Below, one piece after another: positions 7,701-57,800 of a stretch of DNA of 64,000 nucleotides. Every line of letters begins with the position of its first letter. Position 1 is the stretch's first letter. Origin of the DNA: Leucoraja ocellata (taxonomy: Eukaryota); contig JAWMAR010000276.1 of the NCBI GenBank assembly GCA_036785375.1, positions 1,364,001 to 1,428,000 of the forward strand, read 5' to 3'. The notes below the pieces were generated by a model. That model had not been told where the DNA came from, did no database searches, and saw only the letters and a program-made list of their open reading frames with translations. The translations under genes and the position numbers were made by a program.

Positions 7701-10700
7701 ACCTCCAATCCCCAAACACCTGTCTGACAGATCAGAAACACTATTCAGGAGTCAGGTGTGGATTTGTCAATTAACAGAATTTCATGAACAGAAATACAGA
7801 GACTACATTGCAAGATGCAAACCACTGGTTAGCCACAAAATAGGATGGCCAGTCTACAGTTCGCCAAGAGTACTTAAAAGAGCAACCAGAGTTCTGGAAA
7901 AAAGGTCTTGTGGACAGATGAGACGAAGATTAACATATCAGAGTGATGGCAAGAGCAAAGTATGGAGGAGAGAAGTAACTGCCCAGGATCCAAAGCATAC
8001 CACCTCATCTGTGAAACACAGTGGTGGGGGCGTTATGGCCTGGACATATATGGCTGCTGAAGGTACTGACTCATTTATCTTCATTGATGATACAACAGCT
8101 GATGATAGTAGCATAATGAATTCTGAAGTGTATAGACACATCCTATCTGCTCAAGTTCAAACAAATGCCTCAAAACTCATTGGCCGGCGGTTCATTCTAC
8201 ACCAAGACAATAATCGCAAACATACTGTTAAAGCAACAAAGGAGTTTTTCAAAGTTAAAAAATGGTCAATTCTTGAGTGGCCAAGTCAATCACCCGATGA
8301 ATTAATGAATTAATAAGCTTATTGGCCAAGTATTCACATACAAGGAATTTGCCTTGGTGCTCCACCCGCAAGTGACAACATGACATCCAGTGACAGATAA
8401 GAATGATACATAAAACATTAAACATTAATAATAAAAACATTATTGATTAAACATGTGAATTAAATAAAATACCAGAACAAAAGGAGGCAACAAATTTTTG
8501 GTTATTGAGTAGAGTTATTACTCGTGGAAAAAAAGCTGTTTTTATGTCTGGCTATGGCAGATTTGAATCCATTTGAGCATGCCTTTTATATGCTGAAGAG
8601 AAAACTGAAGGGAACTAGCCCCCAAAACAAGCATAAGCTAAAGATGGCTGCTCCATACAGGCCTGGCAGAGCATCACCAGAGAAGACATCCAGCAACTGG
8701 TGATGTCCATGAATCGCAGACTTCAAACAGTCAAAGGATATGCAACAAAATACTAAACATGACTACTTTCATTTACATGACATTGCTGTGTCCCAAATAT
8801 TATGATGCCCTGAAATAGGGGGGACTATGTATAAACTGCTGTAATTTCCATATGGTGAAACCAAAATGTATAAAAATGGCCTTTATTCAAATCTGACAAT
8901 GTGCACTTTAACCACATGTGAATTTTTCTATTACAAATCTCAAATTGTGGAGTAGAGGCAATATAAATAAATGTTGGGTCTTTGTCCCAAACATTATGGA
9001 GGGTACTGTAGATAGGTTGAGTGGCCAAAGACCTGGTAAATGGAGAATTATGCTGGAGAATGTAAAATTATTCATCTTTAAGAAAAATAAATAACATTAC
9101 CTAAATGCTGAGGTATTACAGAGGTATCAAAGTATTCTTGTACATTATATCAAAAAGCTTTAAGTTTCAGCTCCAGCAAATAATTAGGAAAGTGACCAAT
9201 TATTTTTATTTATTACTAGGAACATTGAATATAATAATTGAGAATTTATGTTTCAAATGTACGGCATAAGAGTATAGTATTTGTCTTATTTATGGATAGA
9301 AATGCACTGGAAGCTGTTCAGAAGTAATTGGATGACCAAGAGCAGTACAAAGAGCAATGCAAATTGCTGAATTTATATATTATGCACCATCAGTTATGGC
9401 AGCCTCGCCAACGGTCTGTCTGTCTATTCGTCCTTTTGTTATTTTTAGGGTGTTTTAAAAAGTATGTGTTAATGTTCTCTGGTTTGTTTTATGTGGGGGG
9501 GGGGGGGGGGGGGGGGGAGGGGGTTGGAGGAAACTTTTTCTCAATCTCTTACCTTGCCGGAGATGCGATTGTTTTTCAGTTCGTATCTCCGGTCGCTCTG
9601 CGGCCTAACATCATGGAGCTGGCCGCCTTGCACGGAACTGACTTTGAGCCCCACCGCGGGGACTTACCATCGGAGCCTTGCCTGGGATCGTCACTCCAAC
9701 TGCGGCCTGCGGATTTCAACATTGAGGAGCCTGATGTCGGGAAGTCGCAGAATGTTTGACACACCCCGACCAACCGGCGTGGGGAGCTGAGATCCCCCTG
9801 ATGCGGGAGAATGATTGCCCCGATGCGGAGGGCCTAACCTCCGGCTATGGGAGCCAAGATCGTCCCGTCAACGGAAGGCTCAAGGCCCCACACCGTGGGA
9901 GAATAAAGAAGGGAAGAGATTGAACTTTTTTTTGCCTTCCATCACAATGAGGAATGTGGGGGAGTCACTGTGGTGGATATTTATGTTAAAATGTATTTTG
10001 TGTGTATTGTTGCTTCTTATTGGTATGACTATATGGCAAATCAAATTCCTCATATGTTGCAAAATATACTTGACTAATAAAGTATGATTATTATTACGAT
10101 CTAAAACACACAATCATCCCACCATACACAAGGTGCTTAATTGCACCTTGTAAGGTTTCAATGGGATCTTGCAAACTCATGTGTACTGTCTGGAGGAGGT
10201 AGAAGCTACATGGAAACATCATTAATGACAGCTCCCCTCCATGTCACAAAACAGGCTTATTCATAAATATAAAGATACTTTCGTCATCATTAGAAATCCT
10301 GGAATTCCCTACCTAATAACACTTTTGGAGTAGCTTCATCACATTAACTGCAACATTCTTTTCAAAAACTTTTGGAACTAGCAATCTCTGTTCTATTAGC
10401 TTTAAAACAGTTATGTATAAAGACATGGCGGGCCCACAACTTAAATTTCTGAATTGGGCCAGGGCCAAGTTTGATGGTATTAAACTGGAACTTGCTGAAG
10501 TCTATTGGAGTAGGCGGTTTGCTGGCAAAAGAACGTCCAATAAGTAGGATTCTTTTAAAAGTGTGACGTCAAGAGTTCAGGCCATGCATGTTCCTGTTAC
10601 GAGTGAAGGGTGAGAGGAATTGAGGCTCTGGTCGGGAAAGGAGGTATGGGACATGTATAGTCAGCTGGAATCAAATGTATCCCTGGAAGTTTCAGAATGA

Positions 10701-13700
10701 TAGGACATTGGCTAATGTTGTGCCTCTATTTCAGAAGACTTAAAAGAAAAGCCTGGGAACTATAGGTCAGTGAACCTAACATCTGCCATAAGCAAGTAAC
10801 AGGAGAGCATGTTGAGCCATAAGATATACGCACTTGAACAGATAGGGGCTGAGACTCGACGACTTGAGCTACAGCGAGAGGTTAGGCAAGCTAAGACTTT
10901 ATTCCTGGAGTGCAGGAGGCTGAGGGGTGACCTTAAAGTGGTGTATAAAATCATAAGGGGAATCCATAGGGTGAATGCACAGTCTTTTACCTAGATTAGG
11001 GGCATCAAGAACCAGAGGACAGGTTTAAGGTGAGAGGAGAAAGATTTAATAAAAACCAGAGCGGCTATTTTTCCACACCAGACGGTGGTGTGTATATGTA
11101 ACGAGCTGCCCGAGGAGGTAATATATCAGGTACTATAATAACATTTAAAAAACATTTGGCCAGTACATGAATAGAAAAGTTTTGGTGGGATAAATGGAAA
11201 AACACAGGCAGGTGGGACGAATGTAGATGGGGCATCTTGATCGGCATGGGCAAGTTGGGCCAAAAAGGTTCCGTGTTATATGACTCTATAAATGCTCTCC
11301 TTGTCAGAATGTCCCCATTTCATGAGTGGAAGAAAATAAATGCAACAACAGCCACCAAGCCGCAAAAACAAATTAAAAAACAACACAGAAAAATAACTCC
11401 ATGTTCCATCCATTTAATCATCATAAAAAAACAATACCTCATTGCTGGACGATTATCAGGTGCAAGCTTCATGCTCCAGATTAAGCCCATTGACTCTTGA
11501 CCAATGTAGGTGCCTCCCAATGATTCATCTTGGCTGACTATGACATTAAAAATAACATTTTTTTTTAAACTTACCAAAGTTTTACTTACACTTCCATCCA
11601 GATGAAAATGTTGAACTGTGTGGATCTACATGATTTATTTATTGATGTAACAATGTTTTTTCCCCCAGAGACAAGCCATATTACAAAGTTTAATGTTACA
11701 AAGTTTAATGATAGGGGTAGATGATCATTCTCATATTGACTTGGAAACAGATAAAAATCAAATGAAAAGTTATTTTCTTTCCTCCCCTCATCTTATTTCA
11801 CCATTAAACGCACAAGAACAAGCTACATTGATTGTGTGTAGTGTTTTAGTCTTAGTCACGCCAGATTGATCACGAAAACATTTTTCTATTTAGTTGCATA
11901 ACCATTACATAGTATTGCAAAAACAAGAACCATAGATCACAGAAACAGGTTTGTGCCACCTCTGATAAAACCAGAGAGATTTATAAAAACTATTATTTCC
12001 TCTCTATGTTCAAAATATCTGTCAAGCATAACATTGTCCCAAGTATTAGCAATGCAAAACTTCTCAGTAAAAGGCAAAATGTGAATGGTGTAATTTAGCT
12101 GTACGAACCTCGGACGATCCCCTTCGAATCACTGATGTAGTGGGCATACGCCATCCACCAATCATCATCCTCAGACAGAAGCTGCGAGTGCAGTGTAATC
12201 TGCTGGTTTGGAACTAAATGTGCAATCTCAAGCTTGACTGGTTCATCCACAAGCCCCCTTGTTGGCTCAGCTTTGATTATCGGTGCCACACCGAGACTAT
12301 TACTCATTGCTATACCTAAATTTAAAGAACAAATATCCATGGGAATATCCATATAATAGCACATAACAATGTTATTTCACTTATTTATGAACAACTAATG
12401 ATGAACAGATACCGGTATACCAGAACCAAACACAATCAGTCAATGAAAAAATAATATGTACAAATCCAGAATCACCAATTCACCCCCGGGTAGGCCTCGG
12501 GGTAAATGTACCCCACATTGGGAACCCTTGCGGGACTAACCCATCCATTTATTTCTGCTTTATTTTAAACTGTAGTTCTCCATGCTGTTTAAAAAAATAT
12601 TGCAATTATTTTTTGCATCACTTCAATATCTCCTCCAAGAAGAGAAAAGTTTCAGTTTCAGTTCAGTTTAGTTTATTGTCATGTGTACCAAGGTACAGTG
12701 AAAAGCTTTCGATGCATGATAACCAGTCAACGGAAAGACAATACATGATTACAATCAGACCATTCACAGTGTACAGTAGAGAATAACATTTACTGCAAGA
12801 TAAACCCAGCAAGGTCCGATCAAAGATAGTCCGAGGGTCACTGTGGAAGAAAATATTAATATCCTTTCTTACTTAATTTTGAATAGGACTGTAAACTCTG
12901 ATCTCACATGGGAGTAATTACTGTTGTGTCTTTTTTTTTTAATGTAAATACTGGTTCTGTTCTGTTGCTTTGCACAATCCCGCAGATCATTGCCACTTTC
13001 ATTTCACTGTACATCTTGTATGTGTATGTGACAAATAAAGTTGACTTGACTTGACTTGATTGGAATTGAACAAGGTAACGAAAGGGTGTTTGGATGTGAC
13101 AATTGGCATCTATCGTTGACCAGGTTTAGAAGAGGTTTGTTGGAATTGGCTAAGTAAGATTAGACGTATTACCTCTTATCTAGGAATGTGTTGAAGGGTG
13201 GATGGTAAATGTGAACATGAAATAGTAGACGAAGATAAGGAAGCTTGTTTCTCTCAGCAGTGTGTTACAGTAGACCACCCGCGCCCCCTACCGCTAGTTA
13301 CGTAGATACATTGCAGTAAATGGGGGGCTTATGATTGGCTCGGACAGGGGATTGTGGCGCCGTCACCTAAAAGGTGAGATAGAATAATGTCAAGATCCCC
13401 TATTATTGTGTTTGACTTGTATTAAGCATCTGTTGTAGAATAAGATTGACATTAACAACAAGTATGTTATGACTAATGAAATAATTGGTACCCATGTAGT
13501 AGATAGTAAATTTTCGTATAGTTGTATCTAACAAAAAAACAAAAGTTGTTTACTGCACAGTGTAACTGTCGGCTAATTCTGCTGTGTAGTCAGGGAACTG
13601 TTGAGCATTTAACTGCCGCCATCTCTCCATGATATCATGTAATAAAGTCTCTTGACCTGCGAAGTCTCCGCTTTCATTTTCCTCTAAATTAATTTCTTCC

Positions 13701-27129: not shown

Positions 27130-27178
27130 ATGGAGACATCATTTTACATTATCCTACAGCTGTTAATACCTTTTGCAG
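27130..27178 (+). CDS. VJ-C1 receptor exon 1, signal peptide METSFYIILQLLIPFA
   Basis: gacATGg context, hydrophobic, G|gtatga phase 1. Confidence 0.8.
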
Positions 27179-30100
27179 GTATGAGACCCAACTGTAATAC
27201 TTTATACAGAATTTGATTTCACCAAGCAAATGGAGATTGCTGATGTTGGAATCTAGAATTGAAAAAAGAGTGCTGAAAGAACTTGGTGATCAAGGCAAAA
27301 AGTGTAAGTCATTATTTCATGATGAAATTCTAAATCAGTCCTGATCAGGGGCTCGAACCAAAACATTGACCTACACTTTTTCATAGTCATACGGCGTGGA
27401 AACAGGCCCTTTGGCCCAATTTGCTCACGCTGACTGCATTTGTCCCAACTACCTGCATTTGGCCCATATATTCTTCTAAACCTATCCTATTCATGTACCT
27501 GTCCAAATGTTATTTTTTAATATTGTGAAAGTACCATTTTTTTTGCCTTCACAAATGCTGTTTGATCCACTGATTTCTTCCAACGTTGTGTTCTTTAATT
27601 TTATCAAATTTGGATAGGCATTAAGTTCATACTATATGTTGTCAATTGCATGGAATGTAACAGTCAAAGTGAATGATAGCAAAATTGATGTGATTCTACT
27701 TTTGTTAGTGCATTTTGTGTTGAATTTACTTGATGAAATTGAAATGGGTTAGCAACACTGAATGTTTGCTATTACTTTATTTTCAAACCATCTTGAACAT
27801 TCACAATTGTGTTTTTTATTTTCCTAAGTTGAAATGACTAATATATATTGACACTTTTAAATTTCATGATATAGCATGCCACAGCCATTTGAGCTTTTAA
27901 ACTTAAAGAGCATTAATTTAAACTTTCCAAAACTTTCATTGTAATTCAGAAATGTGGTATTCCATGTAAGCCTATGATCCCCTGGTGTTGAGACCCTTTG
28001 TGCATTTATCCTTTGTATACCTCATTGTTCTTATGTTGCTTGTTTTGTTCATTTGTTTCAATCTGGTGATATTTTGTTAAAATACCATAATAGTCTCAGT
28101 TCATAAAATGGCTACAGCTGGCATTATTTTCCATTCCATGCCTTATTGTGTTGTTACATGGTACCTAATGGATTTGTTTTGGGAAGTATTGTTCTTGCAG
28201 CAGAGATAGAATATATCTTGAAAACAATTCTGTTCTATGGTATTTGAATGTTTAAAATTCCTCTGTTTACATTTTTAAAACATGCAGGAGCAGTGTTAAA
28301 ATTGTACTCCAAATACAGCTGCAAATGTACTAATATGAAGTGTTAAGCTATGAAGTTTCTCTACAAACAAAGAAATGTAATGTGTTGACCACTCATATGG
28401 CAATCGCAGAGGAGGTTCAAACAAGCACAGTTACATTTATTACAATTATTACCGCGGGGAAGATTAACTTTGACATACGGCATTTTAATTACATTTTCTG
28501 AATCTCCTTTTCTCAGCTGTACACAAGACAAATAATGATTTACAACAACCTGATACCCTTACCATCGCAAAAGGACATTCGATCTCATTACATTGTTCCT
28601 ATTCCATGCATTATCTATCAAGATTTACAGTAAAGTGGTTTTTATGCAATGATAGCCCATATTCTTTAACGATAATCGCAAACCTATCTACCGATAAACC
28701 TTGGGTTTCTCATTCTCGATATTGCGTAAGGCATAATTCTACATTGAAGGCATTCATCTTAACAATTATCGATGTTCAAGTCAGTGACAATGGAATCTAC
28801 TGCTGTGAGGTGATTCGGTTGGCACCACCGCCAACTTTAACAGGCAAAGGAAATGGCACCCTACTGAATGTAACTGGTAATTATTTTTTTAATTCTTTAA
28901 AAAGTGTTTTGGCAGTTTTACTTGGAACATTAATGCAAACTTTTGCAGCAATTAACTTTGTACAGTTGTGTCAGTTATATGAGAGATGTGTCAGATATGA
29001 TCATCACACGGCAGTGAGTTAGCTCTAAATCAGCATGCTGGCTGAAGTTCTTAATTTGTCCTTAGTGGTCCGGAATAGGAAGGTTTAGGACACATATATT
29101 TTTGGCAGGTTGGACCTACTTTTGAGATAACAAATAAAAACAGGAAACACTGGATATAATGGGACAGGCAGAGCCTGCAGAAAAGGAAACAGAATAAATA
29201 TTTCATATCTTTCTCCTTTTGTCAGAACAAGGAAATATTTGAAATTACTTTTTGTGCCTGTTTGTGTGAAAATTGAAGGTAGCATGATTTATCAATTTCA
29301 ATGATAACTATCTATACTTCCAAATGATATTTATCTTATTAAGGACTATTTTATTCATAGCTTTCACTGTTGTGAGAAATAAAGGAAGTTTAACTTAATT
29401 TTCATCAAAAGGCACAAATATAGGACTAACATCAGTCATGCTTGTTCTTACAGCAGTAGAGTGGTCTGAATTAGACATGAGGCCAAATGTGTTTCAAATC
29501 GACAGTGTAGTTGTGCTTGATTTAGATTGACAGTGAGATAATTTCAAGTTAATTTATCAGCAAAGAGAGGAAGCACAGTAGAATCGGGCATAGTCAAGGC
29601 TTATAGCCAAATCAGACCAGAATCCTAATTTATGATGCTGTTATACTAGAGACAGGAATTTAATTGACATAACGAACACATCATGGTTACAAAATAGACA
29701 CAAAAAGCTGGAGTAACTCAGCAGGACAGGCAGCATCTTTGGCGCGAAGGAATGGGTGATGTTTCGGGACAAGACCCTACTTCTTGACCCGAAATGTCAC
29801 ACATTCCTTCTCTACAGAGAAACTGCCTGTCCTGCTGAGTTACTCCAGTTTTTTATGTTTATCTTCGGTTTAAACCAGCATCTGTAGTTCTTTAACAGAA
29901 TGGTAACAAAATATTTTGCTTTAAATTTACAGCACAGCGGAGACCTTTTGTCCTTTGTATAAAAGCTATGTTTTATTCGTGCTGTACATTTTGCACATAC
30001 CATCATGGTTGACAAGTATCGGATTTTGTTGCATTTTGCTACCGAATGTATAAATTGTGTCAATATTTAATTGGTACTTTATTGTCTCAATTATGGTATG

Positions 30101-33100
30101 TGCTTAATGGTCAATTCTCTACTGCTTATGGATCAGCTTTGAAGAAACAGAAGAGAAAATAGAATCTTTATGAATGTCAATTTTCCTGATTAAGATCTAC
30201 AAAAATCCAACTGGCTCATTTATGACAAGAAAAAATGAAAGTAGATTTGCATCTATTGAAGGCTGCAGCAAACACATCTACCTTGAAGATAAACAAATAA
30301 GTAACTTTAATTCAGTTCTTCTCTGATTAACCATTAGAATGGATTGAAAATGATAACTAGACTGTTGTATTAAATGACACTCTTATGTGCAGTGAGGAAG
30401 CATTTAGGATTTGGTTGTTGGTTGTAGTATTGTGTGAGAACATAGTGGTTAACTTCAATTGACATCGATGGAAGAGGAAATTTGAAAAGGCTGATACAAC
30501 CAAAGCAAGAGGCCAAGAATGATCGTGGAACAGCATAGTCAACATGATCAAGACCCACAGTCAGAGAAGGCCAATTAAAATAAGTGAATGAGTAAAACAA
30601 AAAATAAGCACATTACTATACACATATGTCTGAAGAAGGGTCTCGACCTGAAACGTCATCCATTCTTTCTCTTCAGAGATGCTGCCTGTCCCGCTGAGTT
30701 ACTCCAACATTTTGTGTCTACATAGTATTCGAGTTAGGTTGGAAATGCGTGAAAGTGGCTAGTTATATGTGTGTCCTTACAGGATTGGAACAATAGTGGG
30801 AATAGGATGGTTGGGATGGGGATGAATGCTTTAGAATGAGGAAATAAGAGCAAAACATTTTGTATAATTATAGAGCTTCATATATATTTGTAGATTAAGC
30901 AAACAGAAAATATTCAGGTGTTCAGTTCTGCATAGAAAAATCATAACTGATTTCAAGAAATGTATATTTATAATTAGTACTGTTTATGTAATTAAATATG
31001 AACCTCAGTACCTTTGTAATTTGGATACCTTTGAAGAATGATATGCCACTTCAGAATTATACCATTGCTAATCTAACGAAAGCATGATCATGTTTCACAC
31101 CTTTTGGCCTCTCTCCACTGGCTGCCTATTCAGTATAGGATTCGTTTTAAAATTATTTTATTTACTTTTAAATCCCTAAGTGGTCTTGCCCCGTCCTACC
31201 TATCTGAGCTTCTTCACCCTTATTCGCCCTCCCGCTCTCTCAGGTCAGATGATCAGCTGCTCCTGATTGAGCCAAAGACTAAGCGGAAGCTCAGAGGGGA
31301 CCGTGCCTTTGCTGTGTCGGCTCCGAGATTGTGGAATGAATTGCCTCTGCACGTTAAACAGACCCCTTCTCTAGCTGTTTTTAAGACACTCCTGAAGACA
31401 TATCTGTTCTCCATGGCCTTTGTAGACCAGTGAGGTGTTAAATTGTTTATTAACTTTATTTGCTTGGTTTTGCTGCGTTGTTCGTACTCGTGTTTTATGT
31501 TTTTTAATTTATTGTTTGGATTTTTGTATGTAATTTATGCGCCTCGTGTTAGTTGTATGTTCTGTTGTTCTGCCTGTTTTATGATGTCTTGCTTGTTTTC
31601 TTTTTTCTGTACAGCACTTTGGTCAGCTTTGGTTGTTTTTAAGGTGCTTAACAAATAAAGTTGTTATTATTATTATTATTATTAATCTATCTTTTTTTTA
31701 TTACCAGCTTGTCCTTCTTTTCGGCTCATGGAATCTTACGACAAGATTTCTTCTTCACCATCAATTATCATTACATGCTTAGCATATGGGTTTTATCCAA
31801 ATATTATTACATTTTGGATACAACCAACCTGTCTCACCCACAGGCGCATCAGTACAAGCAACTCAACCAATCCCAATGGAACCTATAACTACAATGCAAC
31901 GTTTAGCATCTCCACAGAAAATTGCTCCAACTCCACTGAATTCATGTGTGTAGTTCAACATCCAGCATCACAGACCGAGCTAAATGTTACTATCATCATA
32001 GATGTTCATACAGTTGCTCAAGGTAGGATGGTATCATAAAATCAATTCAGCAGGAAGGCCAACAAAGCCCCTGCTGGAATGTGTTGTAAAATAAATGCTT
32101 TACTAGATATAAAGAAAGTGTGATAGAAATAAAGAAGGCCAAATTTACTTTTTTTAAATCAAATCAAACTCACTTTATAATATTACCTTATTAACAGGCA
32201 CACCTTATTTTTCTGGCTGGCTAATTGTTGTTTCCCACTTGAATTACTTCCTTGACATACAATCTCTGCTCTTCCTGATTTATGACACCCTCAAAGGAGG
32301 CACAGTTTTATTTCCTGATATCAACAAAATGATATCAAGAAATAATGTTGTGCCTCCTTTGTGGAAATTAACAAAAATGTATAATTATGTGATTGTAATC
32401 AGAATAAGAGTTCACACGCTAGATTCCTGGTGAAGAACCATGCATACTGGGGAAAGAAATGTTTAAAGCAAAGTCGCCAGACTTCTGGAGTTTAACATTC
32501 AATTCTGGAAATTAACAGGTTAACATTCCGGCTGCTGCAAGCTGAAGAATTAAGAGAAAGCTTATCAGTGCTCTCTATCCGATGTAGAATTCTTAACCCA
32601 AAAACCTTCATTACGATAAACTACATGTAAACACTGTGACTGCGAAATACTGCCATGAGTGTCCTTTGTTTAGGTAGGATCTGATGCCCTGTGTGAGCTG
32701 CTTTGCCTGTGGCTGCTTAGGGCTCCATGCCAACAAATTTATACATGTTGGGTTCCTTTCAGGCCAGAGCTGGAAATAGTCATGTTATTTCCTGATTTGC
32801 CGTCCACTTTTATTGAAGGGAAGTCACCGTTGCCTTCCAGCAGATCACATATTTGTTCTTGCTAGAGACAAGCAAGTGGATTGAGCACACACATTTGGAA
32901 TGGTTGTTGTCTTCTCAATGCTGCTGAATGTCATTGACGCACCCATGCTGCATTGCAGGATTCACATATCAACACAGGGATGTACCACAACTGGTATAAA
33001 ATTTATTCCCTTAATAGCCAGTGCATGCACAAGCATACCCAGTATTCTGGCAGCAGTATAAACACCTATATTCTTTGGTGATGCACTGTGTTTCAGTGCT

Positions 33101-36100
33101 TGAGCATCAGCAATAAACATAAAATTGGCAAGTGGAAACAAGGACATTAAGCTGAACATATGATACCGCAACACATGGATAGTATGCATATTATGAATAT
33201 CATGCCGGCATATACAGTCTGATGGAACAGACAGTCATAGCATCACATGGCCACCAATGGATTCGGGGATGACAAGGCCCTTCATTTCTGCCATATAGGT
33301 AGCTCCTCACTTACCAGAACCTTCTCAAATGGCTCAATCATACCATATTAGCAGAATTTTTGTGATAAACTAGATTAAGTGGGACCCGTTGGCTCCCTGT
33401 CACACGGATGCAACCGGTTCCCCAACACAATAGTCCACTCACCCGTTCCCCCAATGCAACCTGTCCCCCCAACTCAATATTGCACCACTCATGCATAGCC
33501 CTCACCTGCGCAGGCACGGCTCATTTCCCCTAATCCCCCAGCACTCCCTCCCCCTCTTCACCCTCCCTCTTCTTTCCCTTCTCCTCCCCAATCCCTCCCT
33601 CACCTCTCCCTCCATCTACTTTCCCCTACCCTCAGTCACTCCCTCTCTCCACAACTCCTCTCCCCTCCCTACCCCCCTCCTATCCCTCTATCCCCCACTC
33701 CTCACCTCCCCTATTCCCCCCACTATCCTTCCTGACCTCCCCCACTGTCCTCGTCTGCCTCTATTCCCCACTCCCTGCCTCTCCCACCCCCCCTCATCTC
33801 CCTCTATTCCCCCACTCTCCTTACCTCCCCCACTTTCCCCCTCTCCCTCACTACCCTTTCCTCTCCCTCAATCCCCCCACTCTCCCTCCTCATCTCCCCA
33901 GGATCTTTCCCCTCTCCTCCTCCCCTCCCCAATCCCTCCCTCTCCTTTCCCTTACCCTCAGTCACTCCCTCGCTCCATCCATAAAGAGCAGCATCTACAG
34001 TTCTCTCCTCCACAGGTCATCCATTGTTAGATGTGGTTTAGATCCAGTTGACTTGACGATTGGACCAGTTTGCATCGTGTGTGTGAGTTACTCAAACTCC
34101 GCGCAAACTGCTCAGCCACTCTGCAACCCGACTCTAGTAGAAGCAATGTGACACCCCACTCTGAGAGCTCAGGAAATTTCCTTTCTACTTTCAGCTTAAT
34201 TCACTTGGCAACATTCTAATTCAAGTCTGAAGTTTAAACTCCATTAATGGCATATAAACATTATCCCGGAAAACATTCCATCCATACATGATCTGGTGTA
34301 CATCATGCTGTTGTTTTCCAGACATTGTTGAGTATGAATCAGCCACGATATTTACCTTTGTTACAATTCAAGACATTTATTTTAGTTTTTGTTTAGTTTA
34401 TTATCACATTTACAGAAAAACATTTGTTGCGTGCTATTCAGTCAGCAGAAAGACAATACATTATTACATTCGAGCCATTTACAGTGTATAGATAGATATA
34501 TGATAAGAGAATAATGTTTAGTGCAAGGTAAAGCCACCAATACCCGTTCAAGGATAGTCTGAGAGTCATCGAAGAGGTGTATATCTATATATATATATAG
34601 ATATACACTTATTCTAATTACGTTAAACTTTTTTATTAGAAATTTTTTATTAGAAATTTTAATTAGAAATTACATATATATATAGATATAATTTCTAATT
34701 AAAAAGTAAAACATGTCATTAGAATAAGGATCCAAAAGCTGGGTTTGATTCTAAACTAAATTGAGGAATTACAAAACTTTGTCACTTTACATGACCTAAA
34801 AATTGTGCAAACATTTTCCACACACATTTCCATTTCCTCTATTCATAAAAAAACATGTTTTGTGGTTTTTGGTGTTGTGCTATTTCTAAAGGTCAGCAAA
34901 TAGATCTTTTAGTTCAGTTTATGTATGACCAGGTCTAATCCAGTCAAATAACTTTGTGCATTGTTATTTTTAAAGAAAATGAAAAGCATAAACCCCGATC
35001 TGGAAGGTGAATATACTGATGAAATAATTCAAATATGTTAAAGCATTTAAAAATAAATTAACTAAGAATTAGTGAAATCAAATAACTTTATGTAATCAAA
35101 ATTAAAGATCTCACTATAAAATAATTTCATAAACTAACAGCAAGAAAGAAAAGGACTTAAATGAACATAACAATTGAAAATAGTTATAGAAAATGGAAAA
35201 CCTGAGCACAACATTTGAATGGAGAGGTGGATTGATTTTTAAATGTGGTGGAAGTTATAAATAAAAAGCCTTCAAATGTTTGGTCCCAAGTTCAGATCAG
35301 ATTAGTTTATTATCATCTCCAAGAGGGTGGTCCTTGTTTCTTGTTCATATGAAGCTCACAGTGTATCAGTAAACATACACTAATGATAAATACAACAATA
35401 TGACGACGAGAGTAAAACAGCAGAATTGTACACGATTGTCATGCAAAATCCATGTAGTGTAAAAGAATATTAAAATACAAAAATAGAATAATCAATGAGG
35501 TAGAGCATCTCTGGAAATGGGGTGTAAAAGAGATGATTGTTTCAGGAGTCAGTTAGCAATGGGGAAAGTGGCTCTTAATTCTGGACATCTGGGCTTTCAC
35601 GCTCCTGTATCCTCTCACAGAAGGTATAAGGGGGAAAAAGGAATGGCCGGGACAGCAGGTACACTTGACAATACTTCCAGCCTACCTGATGCAATGCACC
35701 ATGAGGGTGGACTGTATGGAAGGAAGAGACAAGCCTGTGATGGACTGGAGATACAGGTAAACAAAATAACCATTGCAGGTCAGGGTGAGTGAGTCTGAAG
35801 AAGGGTCCCGATCTGAAACAGAGCCTACCCATCTCCTCCAAAGATGCTGCCTGACCTGCTGAGTTACAGTACTCCAGCATTTTGTGTCCTGTGATGGACT
35901 GTTTTGTGTTCAGTACTCTCTGCAGGTTCAGATGGTCAAGAACAGAGCAGATCCCATACCATTCTGAGATGCACCCTTCACAATGCATCCGGTAGTGCAT
36001 CTATAGAAGTTTAAGAAAATCCTCATGAAAAAGACATGTTGAATCTTCTCAGGCACATAAGAGAGTAAATGTATTGATGAGCTTTCCTGATCACTGCGTT

Positions 36101-39100
36101 AGTGTCAAAGGACCAGGTTAGGTTGTTGCTGATACAGATACAAAGAAACATTAAGCTGTCGACCGTCTTCACAGCCGCTCAGTTAATGAGGACAGGGTTG
36201 GGTTCATCCCCTCACCAGCCCTATTTCCTTAGGTCAACGATCAACTTTGGTAACAGTCCTGGGACTAGATAATGGAATCGCCAAATGAGGAAGAGTTAAG
36301 AACCTCTGTGAAGGTTTTGTGTAGGTGGTGCTCATCTCCGCTGCACAACCTCAACCATAAATAGACTTACCCTGAAACTGTAACTTGTCATCAGCGATAG
36401 AGATATTTTGGGAGAGCTGTTTTCAGAAAGATGATTTCCGCAATCTTTCAGAGAACCATTCAGATCCACGTCTTTGTCAGATGGACTTTGCTTTTTACAA
36501 AACTGTACGCCCTTGCTTTGCTGAATGAGGTAATCTGCTAACTCACTCTTGTTAATGTTGATGATATTATAAAGCAGAAAAGATCAATCATTAACATGCC
36601 ATCCTGATCATTCCCAGTTGGACCTTGAAAGCTCAGACATCCGGACTTAATAACAACAACTCTCCCATTGCTATCCAACTCCTGAACTAATCATCTCATT
36701 TCACACCCCTTTCCCCAGAGGTGCTGCCATGTAATCTTATTCTTAACTCTATCTCACTCGGTTTTCCACTTTTCCAATTTTTTTGTACTATTTTCAGATT
36801 GTACTATAATCTTTACACCATTCTCATGTTTTGCATTTGCCACTGCATTTATTGTTCATGTATTTATTGTTTACTCTATGAGCTTCATGCAAACTAAGAA
36901 TTTCAGTGTCCTACTGGAGTCTATAACAATAATCTAATCTGTATTTTCATTATTTTGAACAACAAATGAAGCCTCACTCTTTGAGAACTTTTCCCAGGAT
37001 CTTCATTGGCTTTTCAGGCCCAATGGGTTTTTACAAGTTGAAATCAAACTCCAGTTTTTATCAAATTCAAATGGGGTGAAATGGCATTATTAACTGGCCA
37101 AGCCAAAATATTCTGATTGATAACTTAAATTATATTTGTACAGAACTTTGTACATTTATACAAAAGGAAAACGGCTTTGAGACGACGCAAACTATAAATT
37201 ATTATTAATACTGCAATTATACTTTGGTAATGATTAATTGGAAGAGAAAAGAAAGTGTAAAGTGCAGGGAAATTAATAGTTGTAAAAAGTTTCTATAAAT
37301 AAAATGATTAAATGTATTGAACTTGAAATCGTTCTGGAGAGTTGTTTAAATCGACCATGCATAACGTGATTTAACAATTCCAATTTTCCACAGATCATAA
37401 ATGGAGTACCTGGATTTCCATTTTACTTTCCATAAGTGGAGGAACAGCTTGCCTTTTCCCTCTTGTGCTCTTCCTTATAAAATGTGCATGCAGTAAGTGA
37501 CTTCACAGCCAACTTTCCCAAAAGCAAACAATCCAGTTTTAGGTGTAATCCTGATTCTGTACAGTGATTCTCCCTTCATTAATTCCGTGTTTGCATCTAT
37601 TGTCCCACTTTTTAAAATTGACATAATAATATGAAGTAAATTATTAGATATGTCTACTTTTGAAGCTACATAATATATTCCTAACATGACATAAGATATC
37701 TAGTATTATGTTGATTCACATGCTTGATCAATGGTGTTTTATCATTAATGTTTTATTATTATTGTTTAGTGTTTTTTGAGTCGTTCGTAACTGTCAATGT
37801 ATGTCATGTTGTTACTTGAGGGCAGAGCACGAAGGTAAATTCCTTGTGTGAATACTTGACCAGTAAACCTACTTACTTACTTACTTACTTACTTATAATA
37901 TAGTTCACTTTACTACAGACTTTAAAACTAATTATTCCACTTCATTATTATTTCTCATAGAAAGGAAAGGAATGCAAGAGCAAACAAGAATTCAAAGTAA
38001 TCGAACTTTGAACCTTGAATGGAATAACATGGTAAATATTTGATTTTTTTTTAAAGATAATGTATATTTAGTCTTCTTTGGTTACTTATTCAACGCAAAT
38101 GTTGGACTGTCTGTCCCTTCTCAGAATTCTCTGGGATTTCCACATAAACAGACCAAGAGAAGCAGGCTTGTGAGTTTGAATGTATGTATGACAATGTTTA
38201 ATAGCCTGATGTGGACCTTGGATACTCCTGCAAAGTTTTAATTGCAATTACAAAATCAAGCAAACAGCTCATTAGAAATAGAAACATAGAAACATAGAAA
38301 ATCGGTGCAGGAGGAGGCCATTCAGCCCTTCGAGCCAGCACCGCCATTCATTGTGATCATGGCTGATTGTCCCCAATCAATAACCCGTGCCTGCTACTAG
38401 TAGGCTAGTCCTGATACTATGTATCACATGGTGAGGAAACAGTAATTAAATGAGTGATCCTATGGATTTTTTGGTAAATAGTGTAACAATAATAAATGAA
38501 ACAAAACTAGGTGATTCATCAATGGTAATGCCATTAAATGTCAAGGGTAGGTGGTTACTGTCACACTTGTTGGATATGGTCAGTGCAAATGGTTAATTTC
38601 GCTTGAAGTGGCAAACGATTGTTGGGCATAGCACATTGCCTGGAGGAACCCCTGATGAGATATCTGATGACTGGTATAAGTGATCAGCAGCAAAGTACCA
38701 TTTTGCTTTCTTTGAAGTATGATTGCATATTGGAGTGCTTTCTCCTTGATGCCCATTGACTTTTGACTGGCCAAGGATCTAGAATATCGTACCTGGCCAT
38801 CTGCAAAGTCAATCTTCTCACCTCTGAAAGGTGATGAGGACAGGAGCTGTGAAAATCTGGCAAAACCTAAACTGGACATCAGTGAACCATTTATTAGAAA
38901 GTCAGTGCAGCTTCACTGGCGCTTCCCAATGCTTTGTTGATGACTGAGACTAAGATGCCTGAGAACATGCTGAGTGGTTGGCACATTAAACCATTAGAAG
39001 TTAATGCACTGTGTTTTGCTATTTTGTAGAATGAAACCAATGAGGAAGAGATCTGCTATGCCAAACTGCAATGGGCAATGACACGGAGAGCTAGAAAGGA

Positions 39101-39146
39101 GGAGGAGGAGGTGGAGGAGACTGTGTACAGCCCAGTTCTTCAGTGA
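27130..39146 (+). CDS. IgSF inhibitory receptor, leader-VJ-C1-TM-ITIM/ITSM (CD28/NKp30-like V domain), 351 aa, 7 exons
   Basis: join 27130-27178, 28517-28876, 31708-32022, 37394-37492, 37961-38031, 38125-38169, 39030-39146 = 1056 nt; all GT-AG, phases 1,1,1,1,0,0, no internal stops; AATAAA at 39194 and 39208. Confidence 0.87.
28517..28876 (+). CDS. VJ-C1 receptor exon 2, V-set domain with germline J-like G strand
   Basis: ISLHC...VKWF...LTIIDVQVSDNGIYCCEV...APPP...GKGNGTLLNVT; 360 nt, phase 1-1. Confidence 0.93.
31076..31682 (+). mobile_element. 5'-truncated L2 LINE with open C-terminal frame
   Basis: SLHWLPIQYRIRFKI...GDRAFAVSAPRLWNELP...FKTLLKTYLF; AATAAA 31654, (tta)n tail, TSD TAATCTA at 31069 and 31683. 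Confidence 0.9.
31708..32022 (+). CDS. VJ-C1 receptor exon 3, C1-set domain
   Basis: ITCLAYGFYP, NPNGTY, FMCVVQH; 315 nt, phase 1-1. Confidence 0.92.
33535..33985. repeat. Polypyrimidine (C/T-rich) low-complexity tract
   Basis: ~450 bp almost devoid of G on the + strand. Confidence 0.85.
37394..37492 (+). CDS. VJ-C1 receptor exon 4, transmembrane
   Basis: WISILLSISGGTACLFPLVLFLIKCAC; ttttccacag and gtaagt; 99 nt, phase 1-1; no charged residue in the TM core. Confidence 0.85.
37961..38031 (+). CDS. VJ-C1 receptor exon 5, cytoplasmic
   Basis: KRKGMQEQTRIQSNRTLNLEWNNM; tttctcatag and gtaaat; phase 1-0. Confidence 0.78.
38125..38169 (+). CDS. VJ-C1 receptor exon 6, cytoplasmic
   Basis: NSLGFPHKQTKRSRL; cccttctcag and gtgagt; 45 nt, phase 0-0. 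Confidence 0.75.
39030..39146 (+). CDS. VJ-C1 receptor terminal exon with ITIM (ICYAKL) and ITSM (TVYSPV)
   Basis: attttgtag acceptor; NETNEEEICYAKLQWAMTRRARKEEEEVEETVYSPVLQ*. Confidence 0.85.
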   Translation, partial: NETNEEEICYAKLQWAMTRRARKEEEEVEETVYSPVLQ

Positions 39147-51893: not shown

Positions 51894-54800
51894 GTGAGTG
51901 TTCATCTGAATGGGGAGATTGTGTACATTTGTCATCCACTCGCTGGCTGCTTCTCACAAGTTATGAATCTGATCTTAAAGGCAATTAAGTTTTCTGTTTT
52001 ATTCGTTGCCTAATTTAAGATTGAAGAGTAAACCCTTTGCTCAACAATATAACAAAGATGCTCACACAATTTTTCTTTCATTGCTTATTTGCCTATTGAG
52101 GTGACATTATTCTCCTGCTTTTACCTTCATTTCAATCCTTTTTCCCTTCATTTCATTTTGTAACTAAAGTAATATCTTGTAAAGTGTGATAGAGTCAGTC
52201 GATGTGGAAACATGTCAGTGGATTGGATTTGTGGCATGCTGGAAGCTTTAGCATACCACAGCCAGAGAGCAGTGCTGAACTACTATCTACCTCTTTGGTG
52301 ACTCTCAGACTTTCCTTGTTCGGACTTTGCTGGCTTTACCTTGCACTAAACATTATTCTCTTGTCCTGCACTGTAATACACTGTAAATAAACTGTACACT
52401 GTCTGGCTCAATTGTTATCATGTACTGTCTTTCTATTGACTGGATAGCACGTAACAAAAGTATTTCACTGTGCCTCGGTACACGTGACAATAAACTAAAC
52501 TGAACTCTGTTGGAGCACAGGAAGTTTGGAGGTAGATGACTCCAACTTTATCTGCAAGTTAACGCATGCATTTTCATTTCCTCTATTTTCCCAGCTGAAG
52601 GATCTTTCTCTCGATCCTATGGGATCTTGACTAGAGACATCCTGCTGCCCTGCGCCTTCCATGCTTCATCTAATTTCAATCTGAAAAATCTCATCATCAC
52701 ATGGCAGCGGACAGGCAGTCTCGCCGTGGTTTACAGTTTCTATTCTGGAACAATCCATCCGGAGCATCAGGACAAAGCATTCCTGGACCGCACTCAACTA
52801 TTTCTCTCCGAATTCACCAAAGGGAATGCGAGCCTGAAATTGGAAAGAATGTTGTTATCGGATGTGGGAAACTATACTTGTTTTGTAACTGTAGATGATG
52901 GAATGCCACACATTGAGAACGTGGTGGAACTAAAATTAAATGGTGAGTGCATCTTGTGACAGATAGATCAATGTTTTGTTGTGTAAATTTCATAGAATTG
53001 TAAAGCACAGAAAGGGAATCTTTTGGCTGTCTCATGCCAATGCTATTCTCTGCAAATCCCATTTGTCTGCATTAGACCAGTGTCTTTCCCATCCAAGTAC
53101 CTTTCCAAATGTCTTTCAAACATTGTCATAGTATCACTTTCTACTACTTCCTCTGGAAGCTCATCCCAGATATTGTCATCCTGTGTGTAAACATTCTCAT
53201 CAGATCTCTTTTAAAAGTCTCTCCTCTCACCTTGAACCTGGTTTTTGACTCGACCCGCAATCTTATCCGTCCATTTCCCTCCGTGGATGTCGAGTTTCTC
53301 CTGCATTTTTGTATTTTGATCAAGTTTCCAGCATCTGTCACAACTTGCATCCCCATTAAACCTGTGCCTTCTAGTTCTGGCTCCCTGCGGAAAAAGACTG
53401 ACTATATCCCATTGATATCCAATTTAAACTGGTAGAGGCAGAATCCCCGGTTGTCTGGCATTCCAGTGAGTGAAAAACCAGCCTTTCCATTTTCTCATTA
53501 TAATTACAGTCCACTATTCTGGGCGACATGTGCTGAATATCTTGTGAATGCTTTTACAATAACAATTCCTGTAACGTGACAACTGGAACTGCACTCAGTA
53601 TTCCAAATGCAGTGTAAGCAGTGTTTAGTACAGCTCCAACATGATGTTCCAACTCTTGCAGTCATTGCCCTGGCCTATGAAAGCAAAGAGACCATCTGAT
53701 TTGTGTTTTGCTATCTCTGGTGATAGGATTGGAAGTGCAAGTGAATAAGTGCCTCATCTAGGAAGTCTGTATCCCTGGACAGTGGGAAGGGAAGAGATGA
53801 AAAAGCAGGTTTTGCAACTTCTGCGATTGCATGAGAGAGTTTCCCAATCTTGGGAGCGATTGATAATACAGAAGACCGGACCAGGGCAATACATATAATG
53901 TAAAACAGTGCAGCACAGGAACAGGATATTCGGCCTGCAAGGTCCACGCCAAACATGATGTCAGGTTAAAATAACTGCCCTCTGCCTGCACTCAAACTTT
54001 CTTCAAAATGCTGAAAAGGGAGGAGAGGAAAGTAGTCTGAAGAAGGGTCTCGACCCGAAACGTCACCCATTCATTCTCTCCAGAGATGCTGCCTGTCCTG
54101 CTGAGTTACTCCAGCATTTTGTGTCTACCTTCGATTTAAACCAGCATCTGCAGTTCTTTCCTGCACAGAGGAAAATATATGTTTGGTGGTCAAGTCTTGT
54201 TGGAGCTGCTGGAATTGGCAAAGATGATCCATTGAACAGAGAGACAACTGGGTCCAGGGAACTCTGTTGTGTAGGAAGGAACTGCAGTTGCTGGTTTACA
54301 CCAATGATCGACACAAAAAGCTGGAGCAACTCAGTGGGTCGGGCAGCATCTCTGGAGAAAAGGAATAGGTGACGTTTCAGATCGAGACCTTTCTGTTCAG
54401 ACTGCAATATCAGTTTGTCGCTCGCCAATCCCTGAACTGACAACAGAGATCCAGAAAGAGAAGGGGAGTGTCAGATGCTGTAAATTGGAAGCAAAAATGG
54501 AAGGCATTTGAGTTGTGCCTGAGTGCAGGAAGCAGCACTGATATAATCGTCGATGTACTAGAAGATGAGTTGAGGGGTGTGCCAGAGTTGCCCCAAAACA
54601 GTGATAGCTTCCTATATCCCACAAAAAGACAGGCATAGCTTAGCCCATGTGAACTGCACTGTTGATCTGGAGACTATGGTCATGGTCCATTTGTGACAGG
54701 TTTGTATCGTGTGAGCACTTGTTGCTTATAAAAAATTGTATTCAAAATAGAAGACTTACACTACTATTACACTTGCAATAAAAAAAGGGTCCATCAGATT

Positions 54801-57800
54801 TTCACAATTCTGTTCCCAAATGCAAATTATAAAATTAATTACATTATAATATATCTTGATTTGAAAATGTGGTTTAGCTCAATTCTTAATTGAACACTAA
54901 CCATTTGTTTTTTTTTGTGTTCTGAACATCGTAGATATATCGGAGAATAATACATGCGGTGGCACCGATCCAGCTTCAGAAAGGAAAAAGGTTGTACTCA
55001 TACTTCCATTGCTACTTGTCATTTTAATTGCAGTTGGAATTTTGCATTGGCAAATGAAAAACAAGGAGAAACCAGATATTGAAGAGAGTGAGTAAAATGT
55101 TTAGGATTTTGGCCATTAATCACACAAACTGAATACCTATTCGAGAATGTGTTCAGAACACTGCATTGGGAATGGATTTCTAGGCACTTTCAGCCATAGT
55201 GTATATGACATCCTTTGAGAGGAACATGTTCTAACATGTGGTTTATTCTATTTCTTTTTAGTGATTCATTTACTGGAAGACAATATAAAAGGTAAAGAAC
55301 CAACCTCTGTTGAGATTTTCTTAAGTTATGCAGACTTACCTACGTGGAGCTGGCCGGCTTCGGGGCGTGGAGAGCGGCGGTGGCACGTTGATGCGACCCG
55401 GCTCCAGTGGATGGTAACACCGGGAGCTCGCGGATCCCCGGTGGGAGACTGCTTTGCGGGGCACCGGCAGCGGCGACTTCTCCAGCCCGAATTGCGGGGT
55501 TGAGAGTGACCTGGAGGGGGGCCCTACAACGCCCTGCGCGGCCTTAATTTGCCGCGGACTAGCGCCCGCCGGGGGCTTTGACCTCGACTTCGGGAGGGAA
55601 ATGGAGTGCAGGGGAGAGACAAGAACTTTGCCTTCCATCACAGTGAGGAGGAGAGCCACTGTGATGGATGTTTATGTGAATAGTGTTGATGTGTGTTTTG
55701 GTTCTTTTATTGTATTGTATGGCTGCAGAAACTACATTTTGTTTGAACCTCATGTGAGGTTCAAATGACAAATAAAGGTATTGTATATTGTATATAGTTT
55801 CTGCCCACAATAGTAGAAGTGGTCTCCTTGTCCACTACTGGAATCTGCCATGGAATTCAGCCTTATTTCACCCTTCAGAAGGGTGTGAAATAATTGTTTT
55901 TAGAATGTGGTCGTTGAATGAATAAAATAATTAAATATGAATTTTGAAAGAAAGAACATACAAAATATATATAAAATCCAGACCTGTTTGAGCAAAGTAT
56001 CTTAACAATAAATTAATTTTATTCTTTTCAGGAAGCCCATCCAGTCTCACAGCTCATTCAGCAGCTTGACCTTTTAAGCCACATCAGGCTAGAATGGCAG
56101 ATAACTGAAATTATTGATGCAGATGGAATTTGACGGCAGTCTTGTCACTTCCTCATCACCTTTACTGAGATTGTTTGAATCTTCAATTCCACAGCTGCTG
56201 TGGTGGGATTTAGGCTGATGTCACTTGATCAATGGTCCAAGCCTGTAGATGTTAATCACTATGCCAGCATACTCCACTGCTTGCCCTACTCCTCTCTGTA
56301 CAGCCTCATAGTGAACCTTGACACCATTGGTTCAATCAGTGTCCCTCACCCCTTGGTTTGGTGTAATCATATAGTGACCAAAGTAGAGTCCCACCAGTAT
56401 GTCCTGAATGGTACCGTAGTGTTGGGTGCAAGGATAGTCCCTTGTTTCTCACTCCGTTTTGCTGCCCTCCAAACCATGGATCCATTCTACAATGGAGTTG
56501 CATGCTGGAAGACCATAATCTAGCCATTGAGTATTATTTGGCAGGAGCATCATCATTCTGCATCATCCCCAAGCACCCAGGAATCCAAGGTTCACCTTCA
56601 AACTGTATCAGATTTTATTATGTGAAATATTTCCATAATATGGATATTTTGAACTGTGTAACAAAGTGCCAACCAAAAGCTGGTGTAGATGATGAATGGA
56701 AAATCTGCAAGATTTTAATACCTGTGTCAGCAGGGCATACTGACCAACAGTTGGCAAATGGAATAGTATAGGTGGTTACTTGATGATTGGCATGTACAAG
56801 GTGGGCTGAAGAGCTTAAACCTGAAGCGATGTGGGAATTCTTAAAGGGGATCAGCAACTTGATGGATATCTGATGCTCACAGTTCTCACATTTTGTTAAT
56901 CCATGATAATAAAATACTTGCTCGTTCTGAGAAATGTGTTTTTTTTCCTTCAGATGCCATTCTGAATTATAAAGAGTACATCTTGAAAGATAAAATGCAT
57001 TTATGTTGTTCATTAACACAACGGCGAATCGAAAACTATTCGGTTGCCAGAACCATCAATGTTACCAACTTGAAGGAACAAGACCCAGACGTTGATCTTA
57101 TCAGGAGCGATGACTCAAATATTGCACAAGAAGTACAAATTTCACAACTGCTGTCATTGCTTCGGAAAGAAAACTTCTCAAAGCGAGTCCTGCTGGTAGG
57201 TGATGCAGGAGTAGGGAAGAGTTGGACTGTTGTCAGCATGGAGCAAGAGTGGGCATCTCAACCAACCCACCCCTTGAGGTGCGTCTTTGTTCTCAGATTC
57301 CGTGACTTGAATGAGGTTAAAGGAAAGACATCTCTCCGGGATCTGCTGAAGAAGCATTGCACACCTTTGTCATCAGTCCTAACAGAACTCCTCTCGAACC
57401 CTCAAGATGTGTTGATCATTTTGGACGGGCTGGATGAATTCGCCCATCAGTTGCAATGGAATCCATCAGGCTGTGATTTCAACCTGGATAGTGAGGCTGA
57501 AGTAGGTGTTCTTGTTTCCAACCTAATATCCAAGAACCTCCTTCGAGAAGCCCAGGTGTTGGTTACCTCCCGGTGGAATACCAAGCAGATAGAATTTAAC
57601 AAGAAGTACTTTGATCAGCTTTTTGTTATCTCTGGCTTTACCAATGATCAGCTGAAAAGATATTGTGAGGTGTTTTGTGGAGAGAAGCAAAAGGCGGAAG
57701 AAATGTTTCAACGCATTACAGAGAATGCAACCATCAAATGTCTGGCTTCCAATCCCCTCAACAGCTTCATTCTGTGCAATATTTTGGACAAGTGTACCAG

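Follow-up and report, generated by a model that had tools for sequence, protein, structure and literature searches.

A conserved non-rearranging V-C1 gene of the skate with a CD28-like proline loop and a paired-tyrosine tail

Several described receptors resemble the gene reported here, among them PRARP, the subject of Fu et al. in 2019, which is said to have a VJ-joined V domain and two ITIM/ITSM motifs, with V-C1 orthologues in bony fish, amphibians and reptiles and a degenerate C1 in birds. In the part of the source cited here, PRARP is listed among the VJ genes in the MHC (PMC10751288). The CD28 family, as set out in the sections of a 2024 survey used here, has nine members, each with a single extracellular V domain by definition and with a proline motif in the CDR3 loop that is often accompanied by GxG; these sections cover single-V proteins only and leave the origin of the family open (PMC11599192). 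The same sections already describe GxG in CTLA-4, CD28X, SIRP, NKp30 and PRARP, and they provide CD28 and CTLA-4 as the model for an F-G loop acting as ligand site (PMC11599192). PD-1, in the excerpts cited here, has one V domain, a stalk and no proline loop, and its tail carries the motifs (I/V)(D/E)Y(A/G)(E/V)L and (T/V)EYATI; in primitive PD-1 the threonine at position -2 is often replaced, and PD-1 together with BTLA forms the basis for inferring SHP-type tandem-SH2 recruitment (PMC12151841). UrIg and UrIg2, again as excerpted, are elasmobranch non-rearranging V-C1 genes with 3 to 11 C1 domains that have the Trp pin, located in the MHC or the Ig/TCR complex (PMC12227049).

In the window analysed, a skate genomic stretch of 64,000 nt at C276:1364001-1428000, six exons on the + strand join into an open frame of 1011 nt encoding 336 aa, in which the sole stop is the terminal one. 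The layout is leader, V, C, transmembrane segment (TM) and a tail split over two exons. A sequence-only reading of the window had proposed a receptor at this place, and every feature that it named lies where it had been put:

27130..27178, + strand: exon 1, leader of 16 aa with a phase-1 donor; leaders are alike in the Mobula, Hypanus and Narcine models
27243..27303, + strand: start without a leader at ATG 27243 and further donor site at 27303, both alternatives within intron 1, in agreement with the N-termini of P0001 and P0005
28517..28876, + strand: exon 2, the entire V domain including the G strand (Pfam, alignment; V model pLDDT about 75-90)
28819-28833, + strand: LAPPP loop, within the V exon
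28843-28872, + strand: GxGT strand, within the V exon, without the F/W of a J segment
31708..32022, + strand: exon 3, C1-type domain (Pfam, alignment, C model pLDDT 88)
37394..37492, + strand: exon 4, uncharged TM with a conserved S-x-x-GG-x-A-C stretch (elasmobranch comparison)
37961..38031, + strand: exon 5, cytoplasmic spacer (gene model)
39030..39146, + strand: exon 6, ITIM ICYAKL (39051-39068), TVYSPV (39120-39137) and the stop (motifs, gene model)

All five introns are GT-AG, with phases 1, 1, 1, 1 and 0, and the chance of five compatible phases is about (1/3)^5 = 0.004. The joining of these exons is supported by the in-frame phases and by RefSeq models of other elasmobranchs in which the same parts are joined. 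The protein is 98% identical to the little skate model and 97% identical to the thorny skate model. A protein from a 1,354-nt contig likewise has V, C, TM and the start of the tail joined, with 96% identity over 263 aa; the record begins within intron 1 at the alternative donor and shifts frame in exon 5. We infer that this contig is spliced RNA from a related skate, since the joined parts extend over about 10 kb in the skate genome. Readings of the gene as a pseudogene or as a chance open frame were rejected. Pfam assigns the V exon to V-set (E=7e-15) and the C exon to C1-set (E=2e-7), and the ectodomain has 11 sequons. The full-length structural model has a mean pLDDT of 49 and is weak outside the V domain; its Foldseek matches, to TCR-alpha, were set aside because the model is poor beyond that domain.

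Both the LAPPP loop and the GxGT strand fall in exon 2, and the absence of an intron or recombination signal sequence (RSS) between V and G strand, as read earlier from the letters, held up. We scanned the entire 64,000-nt window for RSS-like words with up to 3 mismatches to the consensus; of the 4 weak matches in the window the nearest is at 30059, and the V exon and its flanks are free of them. A rearranged Ig or TCR gene was dismissed on this whole-window scan, which gave no RSS-flanked V and J segments. The description of the G strand as J-like survives in part: the GxGT is present, but the F/W position characteristic of a J segment holds F or W in 0/21 V rows of the family and K in the skate receptor. 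The second Gly of GxG is found in 16/21 rows. The likeness of the loop to CD28 and CTLA-4, by comparison, proved to be under strong constraint. P103, P105 and G111 are invariant across the 21 rows and P104 is kept in 20, so that the full PPP is present in 20/21; the residues around these near-invariant prolines vary.

The C domain was claimed to be a single C1-set domain, and this stands as regards the Pfam assignment, which is above the cut-off, and the C-type fold, but the domain is an atypical C1. It has the canonical C160-C217 pair, lacks the C-strand Trp and has an extra conserved pair, C178/C209, which probably forms a second disulfide. In alignment A4 the Trp is missing and the extra Cys pair present in 19/19 family rows, whereas the 7 non-family rows have the Trp and lack the pair; the family rows were partly picked by this very signature, and the V tree groups the same rows independently. 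The model of the C exon has seven strands (pLDDT 88). Its top fold match is SIRP-gamma (Z 12.3, rmsd 1.8, 88 aligned), and the others lie close together, with butyrophilin and IgY at Z 11.5 and B7-H6 and IgNAR at Z 10.8. All named relatives keep the C domain.

The TM, called uncharged in the sequence-only reading, indeed has zero charged residues in exon 4, and it is the most conserved region among elasmobranchs (0.76 vs 0.56-0.62). Y308 and Y331 of the tail are 23 apart. The inhibitory type of the tail is supported by its paired ITIM-type tyrosines, given that the proximal ITIM and the distal [VIT]VYS motif each occur in 12/12 elasmobranch tails, at a spacing of 19-22 (23 here). An ITIM and an ITSM at this distance had been proposed, and in the skate protein both motifs and the spacing are as described, the distal one fitting an ITSM. 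Nevertheless, T at -2 of the distal motif is found in just 3/12 elasmobranch tails, and the conserved feature is therefore a double ITIM and not an ITSM. The pair of tyrosines is kept in gar and in one axolotl copy; the other axolotl copy lacks it, and so do newt and all three turtle tails compared, so inhibition would not be a property of the family as a whole.

A search with a batoid profile retrieved 9 proteins, all 9 from elasmobranchs (rays, skates, Pristiophorus, Heptranchias, Heterodontus and Chiloscyllium). A wide search gave 888 matches at E<=0.001; among the best 150 of 888, with 10 proteins looked up, it added Scyliorhinus, Stegostoma, chimaera, gar, coelacanth, axolotl (two copies, with adjacent accessions), newt and turtles, along with some further members. 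A wide word search, in which 7,994 candidates were scored, contributed turtles and a chimaera protein as the only extra members, and no bird protein was found among the named matches of either search. Databases name the members by loose similarity only, several RefSeq models carrying SIRP-alpha-like names, and the atlas look-alikes of the receptor are generic IgSF clusters. The V tree groups the family at 82/84 with 49 of the 58 rows and at 91/86 and 94/86 with 39 of them. In the C tree (39/44 rows) the family has 99/98 support, and inside it the branching of gar, coelacanth and tetrapods follows that of the species. Rows left out of the two trees were long branches, near-copies and fragments, and both trees were built without human, HL3, NKp30, UrIg or PRARP sequences. 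The family is marked by a PxP loop and a C1-type domain without the C-strand Trp and with the extra Cys pair, and its distribution dates the lineage to the split of sharks and bony fish or earlier. The proposal of a non-rearranging V-C1 receptor is thus upheld by an intact gene conserved in skates, rays and sharks, with relatives in chimaera and bony vertebrates; judged by its sequence, this is a real, old and conserved non-rearranging V-C1 gene of jawed vertebrates.

On its contig (C276) the order of genes is fascin, DUF829, acyl-CoA thioesterase-like, the receptor, a B7-like gene, tetraspanin, AdoHcyase-family, a weak STRIP, TMEM209 family and NRF1, which we take to correspond to FSCN3, TSPAN33, AHCYL2, STRIP2, TMEM209 and NRF1 of human 7q32. 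Of 2,985 candidates, 300 were taken into the ORF scans of the neighbourhood; for STRIP, the family search gave no match and the ORF scan a weak one below the cut-off. Exons resembling acyl-CoA thioesterase/BAAT lie at window 1818-12376 on the - strand. None of the 11 MHC class I matches is on C276, the contigs being short, and PRKAB and PLA2, the markers of CD28HL3, are on other contigs. A tandem block of 330 kb with the receptor occurs twice on C276 (967277-1296683 and 1301319-1627565) at 97-99% identity; receptor exons 1-5 are identical in the two copies, and the V exon of the B7-like neighbour differs at 8/349 bases. This is likely a haplotype duplicate, with two haplotypes in one contig, and we doubt a true gene pair. 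Apart from the block the receptor is single-copy.

The B7-like gene lies 13 kb downstream of the receptor:

52595..52942, + strand: V exon of the neighbour, B7-H3/B7-H4/PD-L1-like; not part of the receptor gene, a candidate ligand only
52595-52942, 54935-55087, 56954-58667, 60538-60624 and 60720-60887, + strand: exons of the B7-like gene, GT-AG and phase-compatible

Joined, the five exons, among which a leader and the 3' end were not located, encode an uninterrupted 822 aa, comprising a B7-like V domain, a transmembrane segment, NACHT and LRR-like exons, and the product is predicted to be a membrane NLR with a B7-type ectodomain. After the LRR-like exons, an open frame of 193 aa at window 61815-62393 (+), with no Pfam match, may be the last exon of this neighbour.

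The same genome has a second V-C1 family at C175:1081000-1236000 (L096, L138, L169, L174 and L175), with an EIPPP loop and the canonical C1 Trp, which is also present in chimaera. Two of its three V exons there are followed by B7-like V-C-V genes, a layout like that of HHLA2. The V domain of this second family groups weakly with CD28H/HL/X (86/82).

Against the V profile of the receptor family, the second V-C1 family scores 65-80 bits, CD28H, HL1 and HL2 score 56-65, and antigen-receptor-like V domains 29-45. With loop and G strand removed, CD28H/HL score 33-39 vs 28-39 bits, and the CD28-like lead is almost gone. The two skate CD28/CTLA-4 V domains reach 21-32 bits over their full length. Among solved structures, mouse CTLA-4 and a TCR V domain tied as the best match to the V exon at about 31 bits, and whole-ectodomain searches ranked SIRP-alpha, TCR-mu and UrIg2 first. 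In the V tree, the antigen-receptor-like rows (labels assigned in this analysis) are set apart together by a branch with 97/90 support. AU tests rejected neither a tree joining the family to these rows (p=0.315) nor one joining the two V-C1 families (p=0.093), and the V tree cannot separate a CD28 from an antigen-receptor affinity; the link between these families proposed in the sequence-only reading is accordingly no more than possible.

Compared with the CD28 family as excerpted (CTLA-4, CD28X, CD28H and CD28HL1-3), the receptor shares a YxC-x6-PPP-x5-GxG loop and G strand and a tail with tyrosine motifs, the ITIM pair of CD28HL3 in particular resembling its own; in contrast, it has a C domain, no YxxxxT motif in the TM and a locus of its own (PMC11599192). 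Membership was rejected on the published definition, the gene having an in-frame C exon beside its V, and neither synteny nor orthology with the nine members being found. Its accessions from skate and gar are absent from supplements 2 and 4 of the survey (PMC11599192). Separate V exons elsewhere in the genome match published CD28H, HL1, CD28X and two CD28/CTLA-4 motifs, one more being HL2-like, and the receptor locus is apart from these known CD28-family genes. A one-to-one orthologue was found neither in PD-1 nor among the listed CD28-family members. With PD-1 as excerpted it shares two tyrosine motifs about 20 residues apart and a variable residue at the second pY-2, although its motifs do not fit those of PD-1 (PMC12151841). 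The PD-1 trait claimed for it fell away, with the ITSM threonine not conserved and skate PD-1 a different protein: thorny skate PD-1 is XP_032887962 and the receptor orthologue XP_032895918.

SIRP-alpha and SIRP-gamma likewise combine a V domain with GxG, C1 and an ITIM tail and are the top profile and fold matches, but the receptor differs in having one atypical C1, a proline loop and a single gene. UrIg and UrIg2 share the non-rearranging V-C1 arrangement; identity with them was rejected, as the receptor has one C exon without the Trp, neighbours other than the MHC or Ig/TCR complex, and an ITIM tail. The antigen-receptor trait of the sequence-only reading keeps its unsplit G strand and its V-C1 layout and is otherwise weaker than stated, there being no J F/W and no canonical C1 Trp and GxG being known elsewhere. 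The receptor is thus CD28-like in its loop, and its resemblance both to an antigen-receptor relic and to PD-1 is weaker than the sequence-only reading had it.

The reading that we consider probable is a membrane protein of V-C1 type, non-rearranging and belonging to an old lineage of jawed vertebrates, likely inhibitory, with a proline loop likely for a B7-family ligand and a tail for SHP-1/SHP-2. Engagement of a B7-family ligand by the loop would lead the two tail tyrosines to recruit SHP-1/SHP-2. By analogy with PD-1 and BTLA, ITIM-type tyrosines 19-23 apart very probably bind the tandem SH2 domains of SHP phosphatases. By analogy with CD28/CTLA-4, the ligand would be B7-like and would bind at the invariant PxP F-G loop, which we hold to be nearly as likely as not. 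More tentatively, the C domain could be a glycosylated spacer held by the second disulfide, and the conserved TM might drive dimerisation. The open frame, the conservation, the uncharged TM, the tyrosine pair, the constraint on the loop and the V-profile ranking argue for an inhibitory, B7-binding receptor, while the loss of the CD28-like lead without loop and G strand, the AU result of p=0.315 and the SIRP/Ig top matches argue against it. Circumstantially, the B7-like gene 13 kb away and the adjacency of the C175 V exons to B7-like genes point to a B7 ligand; gene neighbourhood alone is weak evidence of B7 binding.

The receptor could quite possibly be orthologous to PRARP, or to a VJ-C1 gene from Ohta et al. 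2019, and so represent that gene in cartilaginous fish, although we stop short of favouring this. A PRARP/VJ-C1 gene reportedly has an unsplit V with GxG, a V-C1 layout and two inhibitory-type (ITIM/ITSM) tyrosine motifs, all of which the receptor has, and the range of the family (gar, coelacanth, salamanders, turtles), its unusual C1 and the adjacent accessions of its two axolotl copies suit that description. The receptor, compared with PRARP by description only, differs in being found in sharks, rays and chimaera, and it sits among 7q32-type markers on a contig without MHC class I, at odds with the citation of PRARP as an MHC VJ gene. The second paired V-C1 family on C175 is a competing candidate for the same identity, and the lack of a bird protein among the matches named above and the turtle tails without the tyrosine pair also count against it. 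Were it PRARP, the name and the novelty would change and the mechanism would not; the PRARP family would be extended to cartilaginous fish, with J and C1 shown to be atypical and hence a weaker standing as antigen-receptor remnant. No description of the gene was met in the literature searched, which does not include the likeliest sources (Fu 2019, Ohta 2019, Flajnik 2023), so absence from print is not established. The SIRP-alpha-like names, the rank of SIRP-alpha as first PDB match to the wide profile and SIRP-gamma as the top C fold match would suit a SIRP-like "self" receptor of myeloid cells with a non-B7 Ig-family ligand and a convergent proline loop. We regard this as unlikely, since the one SIRP-like row falls outside the family in both the V and C trees (its branch in the V tree being long) and scores 27 bits on the V profile, and the receptor is single-copy apart from the duplicated block and has one C domain.

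Descent as a direct relic of a pre-RAG antigen-receptor gene, comparable to UrIg/UrIg2, would account for the V-C1 layout, the unsplit G strand, an origin of the lineage no later than the shark/bony-fish split, UrIg2 as the top PDB match of the batoid profile and the AU value of p=0.315. It is nonetheless very unlikely in view of the J F/W in 0/21 rows and the C1 Trp in 0/19, the antigen-receptor-like rows on their own side of the branch (97/90), the lack of an MHC class I match at the locus, and a one-codon-class leader exon and long ITIM tail unlike Ig/TCR. It is also highly improbable that the receptor is a CD28HL3 that gained a C domain, and so the member not found in Chondrichthyes in the sections cited (PMC11599192). 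The loop of HL3 resembles that of the receptor, and its tail reads V(C/Y)YxxL...(V/T)YxxV, but gar has both the listed HL3 and a separate family member (XP_015207742), HL3 having been compared by motif and locus, and the PRKAB and PLA2 markers of HL3 lie apart from C276. A bolder scheme, which we hold to be a long shot, is an overlooked C1-bearing branch of CD28 type with at least 2 lineages (the receptor and the C175 family), each beside its B7-like ligand. The CD28 family would then have arisen from V-C1 by loss of C1, tying checkpoints to the pre-RAG stock, and the ligand here, the predicted B7-V/TM/NACHT-LRR protein, would couple the brake to NLR signalling. The receptor, likely inhibitory, puts a CD28-type loop on a V-C1 frame, predates the shark/bony-fish split and is recognisable by a simple sequence signature; as a candidate for an ancient inhibitory checkpoint it can be tested, the neighbouring gene being a named candidate for its ligand.

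Other V exons of the genome were noted in passing. L102 (C271:841076-841396, -) is a V exon with a CD28HL2-like loop; HL2 is given as not found in rays in the sections of the survey cited (PMC11599192). L136 (C531:816900-823600, -), with copies on C531 and C384, combines a V exon whose loop reads NPPS..GNG with a TM-like exon and a tail of at least 2 tyrosine motifs, no C exon being seen, and is possibly an inhibitory single-V receptor; beside it, C1-like exons recur by the dozen at intervals of about 12 kb. L133 (C76:8012241-8016989, +) and L134 have three tandem V exons, each with its own GxGT strand, and read as another non-rearranging VJ-type gene.
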